DNA of 64,000 nt from Escherichia coli. GTDB lineage: Bacteria; Pseudomonadota; Gammaproteobacteria; Enterobacterales; Enterobacteriaceae. A program made the translations under genes and the position numbers. Position 1 is the first letter of the stretch; the number at the start of each line of letters is the position of its first letter. Below are positions 51,320 through 58,402 of the stretch, one piece after another. The notes under the pieces are model-generated. The model was not told the DNA's origin and did not search any database. It saw nothing but the letters and a program-made list of their open reading frames with translations. The DNA lies in NCBI RefSeq assembly GCF_001677475.2, contig NZ_CP015229.1; one strand, written 5' to 3'.

Positions 51320-51336
51320 ATTGCTCTAATGAATAT
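51320..51336 (+). promoter_or_regulatory. C1 operator upstream of the uhr-hrdC-dmt operon
   Basis: ATTGCTCTAATGAATAT, 15/17 to consensus. Confidence 0.7.
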
Positions 51337-51692: not shown

Positions 51693-52590
51693 GCACTGGA
51701 AAAACATTACTATTTATAAACTTTCTCGTGAGGCGGATCTGACCGACTTAGAAGATAAAAAGAAAATGATCCTTTTCACGCCATGCGGTAGTCAGGATAT
51801 GGCCAAGTTCGGTTTTGTATCGCCATTTGGTGATAATTCCGAAGTTATCGCTATGCATGGAAATGGTTTTATCCTTGTTGAAGCAAAGCGCGAAACAAAA
51901 ATTCTTCCCCCGCCGGTTATCCAGCGAGCTATTCAAGAAAAAATTGAAAAACTTGAGCAAGAACAAGCGCGTAAACTGAAGAAAACAGAGAAGGATTCCC
52001 TGAAAGACGAAGTTCTGCATTCTCTTCTGCCACGGGCTTTTTCAAAGTTTTCTGTTATCCAGGCGATCTACGATGGTTCAACTAAACGTATCTATATCAA
52101 TGCCAGCGCGCGGCAGGCAGAGGATATGCTCGCACTTATGCGTAAGTCTCTGGGTTCTCTTCCTGTTGTTCCCCTAAGTGTTGAAAATCCCATTGAATTA
52201 ACGCTGACCGACTGGGTACGTGATGGTAGTGCTCCACAGGGATTTCAAATGGGGGATGCGGCAGAACTTAAGGCAGTGCTTGAGGATGGCGGTATTGCCC
52301 GAGTGAAAAAGCAGGATTTGGGAAGCGATGAAATTTCCACACACCTGGAAGCTGGCAAGCTCGTCACTAAGTTGGCACTCGACTGGCAGAACCGCATTAA
52401 ATTTACACTGGACCATAACTTCAGCCTTACCAGCGTCAAATTTGCGGATGAATTGCTTGAGCAGAACTCTGATATTGATAGTGAAGATGTTGCGCAGCGA
52501 CTGGACGCAGATTTCTTCCTGTTGACCAGTGAAATTTCGTGCCTGGTTGATGCTCTGGTAAATGCCCTTGGCGGAGAGGCTAAGCAGTGA
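51685..52590 (+). CDS. hrdC: RdgC-homolog recombination-associated protein
   Basis: 301 aa; long identical runs to E. coli RdgC ([62 protein letters not shown]). Confidence 0.9.
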
Positions 52591-55500
52591 AAGAGCTGTG
52601 CTATGGATCTGTTTGCAGTGGAATTGAAGCCGCGAGTATTGCCTGGGAACCGTTGGGTATGCGTCCGGCGTGGTTTGCTGAAATCGAGCCTTTTCCATCT
52701 GCCGTTCTTGCGCTCCGCTGGCCCCATGTCGCCAACCTTGGCGACATGACAAAACTTGCCAAAAAAGTCTTGGCTGGGGAAATCGAATCCCCTGACGTGC
52801 TCGTCGGGGGAACACCATGTTTTACCGCGGGGCATATGGTTCTTTGTAAAAATGGTTATAAACCAATAGAAGATGTTTGCCCTGGCGATTACGTAGTCAG
52901 TCATCTCGGGCGGTTACAACAAGTAAAAAGAGTTGGTTCAAAAATAGCTAATACGGGGTTACTTAATGCCGTTGGGCAGCCTTTAGGTATAAGAACAACC
53001 AATGACCATCCCTTCCTGGCTGTTCGGTGGAAAGCCCAAAACACCCGGAAAAATGGCACATATTTTAAGAGAGAGTTGTTGTCTGAACCGGAATGGCGAG
53101 CAGCATGTGATATGCCGGGATATCAATGGTGCGCTCTAACTAATTTCAATATTGCATCTCCAGATATTTGTTCTCGGTTCTTGTCTGAAGAACAGGCTAT
53201 GTATCTTGCGGGCGCTTATGTTGGCGATGGATATATTAGGAGATGGAGAGGTAAATCTAAGAAGGCGGTTGTTTTTGGCATAAATTGCCAGAAATTGAGA
53301 AAGTTTCATTGCCGCATACCAGAAAACATATTTTCCGTGGCAAGCGAAATCCGAGGGAGCATCAAAGTAACCTTGAATGATACGTGTTATGCCAATTGGC
53401 TTAATGAACATTTTGGCGAGTTAAGCCATGCTAAGCGTATCCCTGCATGGGTGATGTCGCATCCATTGCGTCATGTGTTTTTACAAGGCTATCTTGATAC
53501 TGATGGGACACCAAGTGGTAAAGCGGGATTTAGAATTAATAGTGTTAGTCCTGCGCTTGCTTGGGGCGTTGCGGGGTTGTCACAGACTTGTGGTTATGTT
53601 TCTTCGGTCAGCTTTATTGAAGTTGAGCCCAAAAAAGTGATCGAGGATCGCGTGGTAAATCAACGGAATTATTATCAGGTAACAATCTGCCCGCAGAAAT
53701 TGTCACGTAAATCAAGATTGGCTCATGGAATGCTTTTACGAACAGTCAAAGAGTTTAAATCGGTAGGCCTAGATACTGTATACAACATAGAAGTCGAAGG
53801 TGATCATTCCTATATCCTCAATGGTGCGGTGGTCCATAACTGTCAGGCATTCAGTATCGCGGGCTTACGTGGTGGGCTTGATGATGAACGCGGCGCGCTA
53901 ACTTTGAAGTATGTGGAGCTTGCAAATGCAATTGACGACAAACGGTCTGAGTCCTTCCTCAAACCGACAGTTATCGTCTGGGAAAATGTCCCAGGAGTCC
54001 TGTCATCGGCAGATAACGCCTTCGGATGTTTCCTTGCCGGATTGGCTGGAGAAGATGCGCCATTTGAACCAGGTGATCGACCTGAATCAGGAAAAAGTAA
54101 CGCGTTCTGGCGGTGGGATGGCAAAACCGGTTGCCATGCTCCAAAGTGGCCGCAGTGTGGTTGTATTTATGGACCGCAGCGAAAGGTGGCCTGGAGAATC
54201 CTTGATGCCCAATACTTCGGAGTGGCACAACGACGCCGACGCGTGTTTGTTGTCGCAAGTGCTCGAACAGACCTCGATCCCGCAACGGTACTTTTTGAGT
54301 TCGAAGGCGTGCGCCGGAATATTGCGCCGAGCCGAAAAAAGAAGGAAATCGCTTCCGCCATTATTGCAAATGGCGCTGCAATCAGTGGCGAAAGCCTAAA
54401 TCCATGCCTACACGCTGACATGCCACCCGGTATGAAATCGACGAAAGCCGTAAACGCTTTCAGGATGGCGGCATTTGGGGAATATATTGACGATGAAACC
54501 GCATCGACAGTAAAGGCAAGAGATTTTAAAGATGCCACTGACCTTGCCGTTTTTAGCAGCACAGGAGCAGGTTTTTGGTCAGAAGGGCATGGTACATTGC
54601 GGGCACGTGAGCAAGAAAGCCATGAGCATCTTGTTACATTGGCTTTTCCTGAGCGTATGAGCGGTACACAACATGCTGCAACTAAGAATACTTCACCATC
54701 TCTAATGGCTAAAAATCCAACAGCTGTTTGCTATGAAGTAAGAAACGCAGAAGTAGCTGTCCGCCGTCTTACCCCTGTCGAATGTGAAAGGCTGCAAGGT
54801 TTTCCTGATGGGCATACGTTGATCCCGACGGAAAAGCGTAAAAAAGTTAATTCAGATGAACTGGCATATCTTCGCAATCACTATCCAGATTTAAGCGAAG
54901 AAGAGGCCGCGATGCTTGCAGCTGACGGACCGCGTTACAAAGCGATCGGCAATAGTATGGCAATACCAGTAATGCGCTGGATTGGCGATCGGATTACTAA
55001 GGCCGTATGTCGGCAGAAAGAAGGAAGTGAAACAAAAGAGCGAAAAGTTAAACCAGCGGCAGAATTCGAACGGTCCATATTCAAATGGGCTGGTGGAAAA
55101 TTTGGTGTTCTGGAACAAATCTTTCGCTATTTGCCAGAAGGGAAGCGCCTGATTGAACCTTTCGTTGGTGGCGGAGCTGTCTTCATGAATGCCGGATACC
55201 AGGAAAATCTGCTAAATGATGTGAATGCTGACCTGATTAACTTTTACAAGACTCTGCAACGCGAGGCGCATTCACTTATCACTCTGGCACATCGTTTCTT
55301 CCAGGACTACAACACACAGGAAGGATACCTGGCAGTACGGAATGCGTTTAACAAACAAGTCTATGATGATTTACATCGCGCAGCGGCGTTTTTGTTCCTG
55401 AACCGACATTGTTTTAACGGATTGACGCGTTACAACCAGGCCGGTGAGTTCAATGTCGGTTACGGGAAGTATAAAACTCCGTATTTCCCATTACAGGAGA

Positions 55501-55844
55501 TGGAAGCCTTCCTCGGTGCGGAAGGGCGGTCTGAGTTTGTATGCGGTGATTTTGCAGCGGTGATTGAAGCTGCCGGAGAAGGAGATGTCATCTTTTGCGA
55601 TCCGCCGTATGAACCGCTTCCAAATACAGAGGGATTCACGAACTATTCCGGTCATGACTTTAAGTTTGAAGAGCAAAAACGCCTGGTGTCTCTGTTGACG
55701 GATGCTCATCGTCGAGGTGCAAAGGTTCTCATTACTAACAGTGGCGCGCCAAACATCAGAGAGCTTTATCATGACAGTGGCTTCAGAGTGGAACCTCTTT
55801 TTGCCAGACGTTCTGTGTCTTGTAAGGGGACACTCGAGGTGTAG
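52587..55844 (+). CDS. dmt: Dmt: C5-cytosine MTase (N-terminal, intein-interrupted) fused to Dam-type N6-adenine MTase (C-terminal)
   Basis: Motif I SVCSGIE; motif IV split GGTP|C..intein..HN|CQAFSIAG; motif VI VWENVPG; C-terminal half FKWAGGK...EPFVGGGAV...DPPY. Confidence 0.9.
52818..53840 (+). mobile_element. 341-aa class-1 intein with LAGLIDADG homing-endonuclease domain
   Basis: Starts CFTAGHMV (block A), TTNDHPF (block B), [11 protein letters not shown] and [10 protein letters not shown] (LAGLIDADG x2), ends [21 protein letters not shown] followed by +1 Cys. Confidence 0.88.
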
Positions 55845-56545: not shown

Positions 56546-56621
56546 GATGGTGTAGCTCAGCGGTTAGAGCGGTTGACTGTTAATCAACGGGTCGATGGTT
56601 CAAATCCATCCACCATCGCCA
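56546..56621 (+). tRNA. trnA: tRNA-Asn (GTT)
   Basis: Manual cloverleaf: acceptor GATGGTG/CACCATC, D arm GCTC/GAGC, anticodon arm GTTGA-CTGTTAA-TCAAC, T arm GATGG-TTCAAAT-CCATC, encoded CCA. Confidence 0.9.
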
Positions 56622-56623
56622 AT

Positions 56624-56699
56624 GCCGGTTTAGCTCAGTTGGTAGAGCGCCTGCCTTGTAAGCAGGATGTCAGCGGTTCGAGTCCGTTAATCGGCACCA
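56624..56699 (+). tRNA. trnT: tRNA-Thr (TGT)
   Basis: Acceptor GCCGGTT/AATCGGC, anticodon arm CCTGC-CTTGTAA-GCAGG, T arm AGCGG-TTCGAGT-CCGTT, encoded CCA. Confidence 0.9.
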
Positions 56700-58326: not shown

Positions 58327-58402
58327 GGCCCTTTAGCTCAGTGGTTAGAGCTGGCGACTCATAATCGCACGGTCACCGGTTCAAGTCCGGTAGGGGCCAC
58401 CA
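58327..58402 (+). tRNA. trnI: tRNA with CAT anticodon, Ile2 (lysidine) type
   Basis: Cloverleaf with acceptor GGCCCTT/AGGGGCC, loop CTCATAA, T arm ACCGG-TTCAAGT-CCGGT, CCA; closely resembles E. coli ileX as I recall it. Confidence 0.85.

Follow-up and report, generated by a model that had tools for sequence, protein, structure and literature searches.

A putative class-1 intein with a nested LAGLIDADG endonuclease in the catalytic motif of a P1-like Dmt methyltransferase from Escherichia coli

DNA methylase inteins have been described in mycobacteriophages, where DNMT-1 and DNMT-2 occupy host proteins of the type represented by Pacc40 gp60 (Kelley et al. 2016, PMC5050341), and actinophage methylase inteins were analysed by Gosselin et al. 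(2023, PMC9957025). A 2025 PhagesDB survey counts C-5 methylases (IPR001525) among known intein hosts; its coverage is of actinobacteriophages only, with P1-like phages and enterobacteria outside it (bioRxiv 10.1101/2025.01.02.630785). Here we describe a 64,000-nucleotide (nt) stretch of Escherichia coli DNA (contig NZ_CP015229.1; hereafter the window) in which dmt, the DNA methyltransferase gene of a P1-like element, is interrupted in frame by a 341-amino-acid (aa) block with the features of an intein. P1 is a classic model and a workhorse of transduction, and resistance genes are often carried by phage-plasmids of the P1-like kind. The literature searched contained no mention of an intein in P1 Dmt, in P1-like phages or in Punavirus; a broader search for inteins in cytosine methyltransferases returned mostly unrelated work, with the mycobacteriophage and actinophage methylase papers the useful part. 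Papers that discuss dmt treat Dmt as a plain methyltransferase.

Our reading, to which we assign a probability of roughly 0.87, is that nt 52818-53840 of the window encode a class-1 intein with a nested LAGLIDADG endonuclease, in a repressor-controlled P1-like dmt gene, with splicing and homing predicted from sequence and structural modelling. Alignment to reference P1 Dmt (AF234172, 754 aa) places all of the extra sequence in one gap-free block (window aa 78-418; Table 1), inserted between Pro77 (...VLVGGTP) and the motif IV catalytic Cys of the C5-methyltransferase. The block is absent from reference P1 Dmt and present in the Dmt proteins of RCS47 (1095 aa) and OP279344 ("P1 del res del mod", 1013 aa); outside it, the window protein and P1 Dmt share 99% identity. 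The gap is equally clean against six other intein-less alleles. The junctions read GGA ACA CCA/TGT TTT ACC at the 5′ end and GTC CAT AAC/TGT CAG GCA at the 3′ end, and the intein-less site consists of GTCGGGGGTACGCCT followed by TGTCAGGCATTCAGT, with the insertion point between the two. G+C content is 43% in the intein versus 49-55% in the exteins. A first-pass annotation, made from the letters of the window and a list of its open reading frames (ORFs), had proposed a 1085-aa dmt product with a single 341-aa block beyond P1 Dmt; that block is recovered exactly, as a clean insertion bounded by Cys1 and by His-Asn/Cys+1, and the motifs it had quoted (the block A Cys, block B, two LAGLIDADG motifs and the C-terminal junction) all lie where it placed them.

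Excision of the block in silico yields a 744-aa, 82.4-kDa protein that is 99% identical to P1 Dmt. The PF00145 score rises from 105.2 bits for the precursor to 125.6 bits after in-silico splicing, and the N-terminal match then runs continuously through motif IV; in the precursor, as in relatives, the profile breaks at about position 71. The earlier proposal that removal of the block re-forms motif IV, with the catalytic Cys in the +1 position, is thereby borne out, and the VWENVPG and DPPY motifs that it had placed downstream are in frame. C5 motifs I, IV (PCQ), VI (ENV), VIII (QRR) and X (GNS) occur in order, identifying the extein as a C5 DNA cytosine methyltransferase; for P1 Dmt, the GenBank note (AF234172) qualifies 5-methylcytosine activity with "perhaps".

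A G-run has lost 1 bp (55826-55829; GGGG versus GGGGG in P1/RCS47), which leaves the window Dmt 10 aa shorter at its C-terminus than P1 and RCS47 Dmt, and for this reason the predicted spliced product is 744 aa long. The 341-aa excess given in the first-pass annotation stands, with a spliced product of 744 rather than 754 aa. A second insertion or a rearrangement as the source of the differing C-terminus is ruled out, as the G-run deletion explains it. The deletion frameshifts the last dmt codons, and the window protein ends ...SCKGTLEV. Since the exact 1085-aa protein (WP_244585985.1 at NCBI) occurs on four public contigs, the deletion is probably either real or a recurrent homopolymer error.

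Table 1. Features of the dmt locus, in window coordinates
Feature	Position	Strand	Description	Basis
C1 repressor operator (Odmt/Op68-like)	51320..51336	+	promoter of the uhr-hrdC(rdgC)-dmt operon; ATTGCTCTAATRAATAT	one exact match, 0 expected by chance
dmt precursor ORF	52587..55844	+	1085 aa, 120.6 kDa; N-extein + intein + C-extein	ORF list; Pfam PF00145, Hint_2, LAGLIDADG_3, PF02086
N-extein	52587..52817	+	aa 1-77; motif I (52608-52637), first half of motif IV VLVGGTP (52797-52817)	P1 Dmt alignment
Intein-linked flank tract	52714..52817	+	presumed co-conversion tract; last 104 nt of N-extein	variable-site tables
Intein (putative)	52818..53840	+	341 aa, 38.3 kDa	P1 Dmt alignment, AlphaFold2 model, Foldseek
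Splicing block A	52818..52856	+	intein aa 1-13; Cys1 (TGT, 52818-52820), predicted first nucleophile	Hint_2; C1 in 143/143 relatives
Splicing block B	52986..53015	+	intein aa 57-66; TxxH pair T61, H64 (T61-N-D-H64)	family alignment
LAGLIDADG motif 1	53202..53237	+	intein aa 129-140; D137, presumed catalytic acidic residue; model helix 124-137	family alignment, AlphaFold2 model
AKRIPAW segment	53430..53450	+	Lys206, candidate endonuclease active-site lysine by analogy with PI-SceI	K206, W211 invariant in family alignment
LAGLIDADG motif 2	53478..53510	+	intein aa 221-231; D229, presumed second catalytic acidic residue	LAGLIDADG_3, family alignment
Splicing blocks F + G	53775..53840	+	intein aa 320-341 (ends NGAVVHN); D329, His340, Asn341	TIGR01443, family alignment, Spl DnaX mini-intein C-terminus match
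C-extein	53841..55844	+	remaining C5-methyltransferase + Dam-type N6-adenine methyltransferase domain	Pfam, NCBIfam, alignment
C-extein start	53841..53864	+	Cys+1 (53841-53843) = motif IV catalytic Cys, then QAFSIAG	alignment, motif coordinates
C-extein motif VI ENV (VWENVPG)	53976-53996	+	in frame	
C-extein QRRRR motif	54225-54254	+		
C-extein variable/target-recognition region	~54333-54761	+		
C-extein GNS motif	54942-54971	+		
Dam-type domain	~55074-55829	+	precursor aa 830-1081; DPPY 55599-55610, in frame	TIGR00571 245 bits

The Hint and LAGLIDADG domains for which the first-pass annotation advised a search are recovered by profile searches. Within the block, Pfam LAGLIDADG_3 scores 35.1 bits (cutoff 22.5; intein aa 221-284), Hint_2 scores a marginal 28.5 bits (cutoff 28.4; intein aa 1-49), and NCBIfam TIGR01443 (intein_Cterm) scores 25.9 bits (cutoff 15.6) over the last 21 residues. 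Pfam Intein_splicing matches weakly, spanning both ends of the block at a score below its cutoff, and the NCBIfam models for intein-containing RNR, GyrA, RFC and DnaB proteins give weak partial matches. In a family alignment of the block with 13 homologues drawn from a search of 5.8 billion proteins, G138, G230, K206, W211 and N341 are invariant, and C1, T61, H64, D137, D229, D329 and Cys+1 are nearly so.

The structural case depends on fold comparison, since a sequence-only search of the PDB gave weak matches (Spl DnaX mini-intein, E 0.0014; PI-PkoII, E 0.027). An AlphaFold2 model built from the family alignment has a mean predicted local distance difference test (pLDDT) score of 93.2 and a predicted template modelling (pTM) score of 0.90. 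Its best PDB matches by Foldseek are all bifunctional inteins: PI-SceI (8e-17), TliVMA (2.5e-16), PI-PfuI (2e-10) and PI-PkoII (1e-9), followed by the free-standing LAGLIDADG enzymes I-DmoI and I-SceI. The matches to PI-SceI, TliVMA and PI-PfuI extend along the full length. The block thus combines Cys1, the block B TxxH pair, His-Asn/Cys+1 and a Hint fold in a removable in-frame insertion, as expected of a class-1 intein; both LAGLIDADG motifs, their conserved acidic residues and the matches to I-DmoI and I-SceI point to a predicted two-motif homing endonuclease. A class-3 intein or BIL domain is ruled out by Cys1, Cys+1 and the LAGLIDADG domain, and block F (VEGDHSY) is without Cys. A free-standing endonuclease gene or a restriction-modification-type fusion is likewise ruled out, as the block is in frame, lies inside the Hint domain and breaks the catalytic motif.

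The insertion site is shared with a large family of relatives. A phmmer scan of 1.84 billion cluster representatives (50%-identity clusters) returned 4453 hits, of which 192 reached E ≤ 1e-30. Cys1 is found in every one of the 143 complete top relatives; Cys+1 is present in 138, Pro at -1 in 127, and "CQ" at +1/+2 in 120, and 126 match C[QT..]xxS, with a median intein start at residue 76. All 12 examined relatives that retain both junctions occupy the same site, 11 of them with a Pro-family -1 context and "CQ" or "CT" at +1/+2. Identity to the window intein ranges over 27-57% among relatives overall and reaches 52-57% in the nearest ones outside P1-like elements. In a tblastn search of phage genomes, four phages were found to carry homologues (27-48% identical) within proteins annotated as cytosine methyltransferases: Mannheimia phage vB_MhS_587AP2 (orf35), E. 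coli jumbo phage A4 (gp120, and relatives), Lactobacillus phage Nyseid and Propionibacterium phage B22 (gp50). In translation, all four inteins lie at ...P/C...HN/CQxxSxAG, so that in each case a homologous intein separates the motif IV Pro from the catalytic Cys that follows it. Because relatives share this site in so many C5-methyltransferases, the P/C position appears to be a long-standing intein home at which splicing must work. None of the records examined for these same-site relatives carries an intein annotation.

The closest named relative, at 48% identity, is that of Mannheimia phage vB_MhS_587AP2 (locus L011, 964-3284), which lies in a Dmt-like C5-methyltransferase. Its C-extein, which is broken as described below, resumes in another ORF, and a gene annotated as an HNH homing endonuclease adjoins it downstream; two selfish elements are therefore associated with one disrupted methylase.

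Among P1-like elements, the intein is common and nearly uniform. The same intein DNA occurs in RCS47, vB_EcoM-Ro157c2YLVW and OP279344, with 99.0-99.5% identity over the whole dmt gene. Among 5426 complete E. coli genomes, 151 carry it, always at ≥99% identity, as do 132 plasmids in PLSDB from E. coli, Salmonella and Shigella (127 at ≥99%). A 490-nt C-extein probe, used to count dmt itself, matched 489-492 complete E. coli genomes and 491 PLSDB plasmids, giving an occupancy of P1-like dmt of ~31% and ~27%, respectively. Records that contain the intein name only "DNA methyltransferase", "Dmt" or "Dam family site-specific DNA-(adenine-N6)-methyltransferase".

Two aspects of these records concern the identity of the host element. 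OP279344.1 (L002, "Escherichia phage P1 isolate del res del mod") contains the intein and a short variable region, unlike reference P1, and is identical over ~2.6 kb (850 nt upstream, the N-extein, the intein and the first 490 nt of the C-extein) to a plasmid of a wild E. coli from Uruguayan beef (CP061756, L004); either laboratory P1 stocks vary at dmt, or the record derives from another P1-like phage. Additionally, intein-bearing dmt at times lies on chromosome-sized contigs (the longest 5,498,453 nt; four chromosomal places), rather than on plasmids of ~90-130 kb, and P1-like elements may sometimes be integrated into the chromosome or co-assembled with it.

Variation around the intein was compared in 20 alleles, the window and 19 further loci, of which 13 carry the intein and 7 lack it. 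Based on the first six carriers, nucleotide diversity stands at 0.004 within the intein, as against 0.012 both upstream and in the N-extein and 0.017 in the C-extein, and is hence three to four times lower in the intein. The window and the OP279344/CP061756 sequence differ at 0 of 1023 intein positions, compared with 14 of 490 in the C-extein and 13 of 900 upstream. Synonymous sites 52714, 52770, 52796 and 52817 are fixed between the intein-plus and intein-less alleles, and 12 of the 13 carriers share an identical sequence over the last ~80 nt 5′ of the intein, the other (L017) differing at 52771 only; farther upstream, carriers segregate for the same polymorphisms as empty alleles. On the C-side, the switch from the carrier-linked to the P1-type haplotype occurs within 24 nt in the window and in L015, and between 53946 and 53954 (about 110 nt) in RCS47; in the remaining carriers it lies farther out or outside the compared region. 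The intein occurs in at least four dmt variable-region forms (total 1003, 1013, 1085/1095 and 1148 aa), and empty forms measure 672, 754 and 862 aa. Sporadic presence at a single site, lower divergence than the flanks, and linked flank tracts are as expected of a mobile element and consistent with homing. Low intein diversity on diverged dmt backgrounds, together with the linked flank tract, suggests that one intein lineage has recently spread into diverged dmt alleles with short co-converted flanks, a homing footprint; from this population pattern and the intact catalytic residues we infer homing, the endonuclease activity itself being predicted from the residues.

The region that distinguishes the length forms is a swappable middle part of the C5 half (dmt aa ~583-725) and is probably the target-recognition domain; the length forms suggest several cytosine-methylation specificities among P1-like elements. 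Reference P1 (L003, AF234172) encodes Trp74 at the equivalent of window position 52806 (VLVWGTPCQ), where all 19 other alleles encode Gly (VLVGGTPCQ). The change affects motif IV, lies 12 nt from where the intein inserts, and might have impaired the C5-methyltransferase of the laboratory reference strain or altered the presumed homing site.

Several observations weigh against the reading of an active, homing intein. In several engineered inteins, a -1 proline disfavours the N-S acyl shift and blocks or slows N-terminal cleavage, and splicing at this junction might be slow or conditional; a citable statement that Pro at -1 inhibits splicing was sought in the literature and not found. The literature searched likewise yielded no published splicing or endonuclease activity for the window intein or for any same-site relative. 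In the profile searches, Hint_2 barely reaches its cutoff and Intein_splicing falls under its own. The flank analysis rests on 20 alleles only, and its pattern of flanks and diversity could arise by ordinary homologous recombination of P1-like plasmids, without an endonuclease. The intein polymorphisms are too few, and too evenly divided (7 non-synonymous, 6 synonymous), to demonstrate selection on the endonuclease over so short a time. Decay also occurs: in L017 (NZ_CP010146.1), a T>A change at the equivalent of window position 52771 introduces a stop at codon 62 of the N-extein, and in Mannheimia phage 587AP2, the C-extein is broken directly after Cys+1-Gln (CQSDKGG..., followed by a stop). 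The RefSeq coding sequence of L017 starts 3′ of its stop codon, and the locus is a decaying, presumably unexpressed intein-bearing dmt.

Three other accounts of the locus draw on parts of this evidence. The block might be a true intein whose endonuclease is no longer active, its patchiness and low diversity reflecting ordinary recombination and the clonal spread of P1-like plasmids. The mosaic structure of dmt, in which the forms of the variable region and the flank haplotypes assort without regard to the intein, and the share of non-synonymous changes fit this account. However, both LAGLIDADG acidic residues and the Lys are intact and are conserved in relatives down to ~30% identity; the N-flank tract is short and sharp, with C-side switches 24-110 nt from the intein, as in double-strand-break repair; and ~31% occupancy, with ≥99% identity among plasmids of E. 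coli, Salmonella and Shigella, suggests a recent sweep. We consider the loss of endonuclease activity unlikely, though it is the most credible of the three. It is more doubtful still that the intein is a splicing-dead remnant, with the C5 half permanently inactive, Dam working within an unspliced 120-kDa fusion, and fitness unaffected because C5 activity is dispensable. In P1, dmt is non-essential in a CRISPR interference (CRISPRi) screen and packaging needs GATC methylation only, the -1 proline may disfavour the first splicing step, and decayed copies occur in L017 and Mannheimia phage 587AP2. Yet C1, T61, H64, D329, H340, N341 and C+1 are all intact, of 11 intein-plus alleles readable to a stop, 10 have an open ORF, and the retention of Pro at -1 and Cys-Gln at +1/+2 in ~85% of 143 diverged relatives with recognisable C5 exteins is hard to reconcile with dead splicing.

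We give almost no credence to the third account, in which a nuclease domain kept within the mature methyltransferase forms a single-chain enzyme resembling a restriction-modification system. Such an arrangement was raised by Gosselin et al. (PMC9957025) for a separate LAGLIDADG insertion in actinophage methylases. At this locus, however, the nuclease is nested in a complete Hint domain with all splice-junction residues, motif IV is cut between its Pro and Cys in a manner incompatible with an active unspliced methyltransferase, and orthologues without the block are otherwise 99% identical. Because the block splits the catalytic motif, it is not a permanent nuclease fusion, and a splicing intein with a homing endonuclease is retained as the preferred reading.

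Under that reading, expression would be tied to the phage cycle. The operator region aligns to the annotated Odmt/Pdmt of P1 (AF234172), and the Pdmt region is conserved; given this and the exact C1-operator match, dmt and its intein are expected to be expressed during lytic growth. A 120.6-kDa precursor would be made at lytic induction from the C1-repressed uhr-hrdC-dmt operon. As the residues and fold predict, Cys1 would then effect an N-S acyl shift at the Pro77-Cys1 bond; the resulting thioester would be attacked by Cys+1, which is the methyltransferase's own catalytic cysteine; cyclisation of Asn341 would free the 38.3-kDa intein; and an S-N shift would re-form ...GGTP-CQAFS..., yielding the 82.4-kDa Dmt. 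In an encounter between two P1-like genomes, either the precursor or the released intein could cut intein-less dmt at the sequence coding for motif IV, and repair would copy the intein and short flanks into the cut allele.

Before splicing, the interruption of motif IV and of the fold means that the C5-methyltransferase domain of the precursor would be inactive; the C-terminal Dam domain is uninterrupted. The suggestion in the first-pass annotation that splicing could gate either or both activities of Dmt is speculation: the C5 domain alone is interrupted, and the Dam domain (aa 830-1081) is separate and intact, so that the sequence lends no support to gating of Dam activity. A narrower proposal, which we regard as improbable, and only slightly less so than a splicing-dead remnant, is that conditional splicing switches on the C5 (anti-restriction) half post-translationally while the Dam half is active from the start, with the endonuclease acting as a gene drive. 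Possible mechanisms are a reversible Cys1-Cys+1 disulfide or slow chemistry at the conserved -1 proline; the intein family may be adapted to, or regulated by, this unfavourable junction (Pro77, 52815-52817). If splicing were conditional, the C5 half would be on only in particular redox or lytic-cycle states, and if the gene drive operated, it would bias which co-infecting plasmid's alleles near dmt survive superinfection.

Downstream of dmt, genes for tRNA-Asn(GTT) and tRNA-Thr(TGT), as in P1, are followed by tRNA-Met(CAT) (56546-56699 and 58327-58402), the last of which is tRNA-Ile2-like in the P1 annotation. Between dmt and these genes, the dicF-like and ban-operator region shows 98% conservation relative to P1.

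About a third of P1-like dmt genes, including one "P1" GenBank record, hold an unannotated intein, and the label "Dam family methyltransferase" for a 1013-1148-aa protein misstates its size, domain structure and maturation. Additionally, 99%-identical intein-plus and intein-less alleles in a genetically easy phage constitute a natural system, in which the pattern points to ongoing homing and which is suited to measuring homing rates, co-conversion tract lengths and what an intein costs a phage-plasmid in fitness. Judging from its sequence, the element may also serve as a tool, either as a compact 341-aa intein that would tolerate Pro at -1 and use an enzyme's catalytic Cys at +1, or as a LAGLIDADG meganuclease that would target a widely conserved methyltransferase coding motif.

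General knowledge of inteins is unchanged by this finding. The first-pass annotation knew of no intein in a DNA C5-methyltransferase or in P1-family dmt; the second part agrees with our literature search, which found no paper on a P1 Dmt intein, and the first does not hold, given the same-site relatives, the actinophage survey and the presence of RCS47 in GenBank. The implied rarity fails because relatives fill the identical P/C site in C5-methyltransferases of many phages and bacteria. The window intein is a known kind of element, canonical and at a conserved intein site, though undescribed in the literature and unannotated in databases. It shares with PI-SceI, TliVMA, PI-PfuI and PI-PkoII a Hint domain with a nested two-motif LAGLIDADG endonuclease and the Cys1, His-Asn, Cys+1 chemistry; however, PI-SceI (Saccharomyces cerevisiae VMA1) and the archaeal VMA, RNR and Pol inteins are only 11-16% identical to it, measure 454-537 aa against its 341 aa, and reside in other host proteins and other domains of life. 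The Pacc40 gp60 intein is a more distant relative with a phage DNA methyltransferase host, a class-1 LAGLIDADG architecture, ~27% identity and Cys1/KN/Cys+1 junctions, but it interrupts an N4/N6 methylase (N6_N4_Mtase) extein at a different site (HV/C...KN/CPLQFD) in phages with actinobacterial hosts. The closest counterparts are the same-site phage and metagenome inteins (the four named above and more than 120 cluster representatives), which are homologous to the window intein over their full length, combine class-1 splicing motifs with LAGLIDADG, and span 312-352 aa, whereas their C5-methyltransferase exteins differ (N-extein identity 19-69%) and mostly lack the fused Dam domain.

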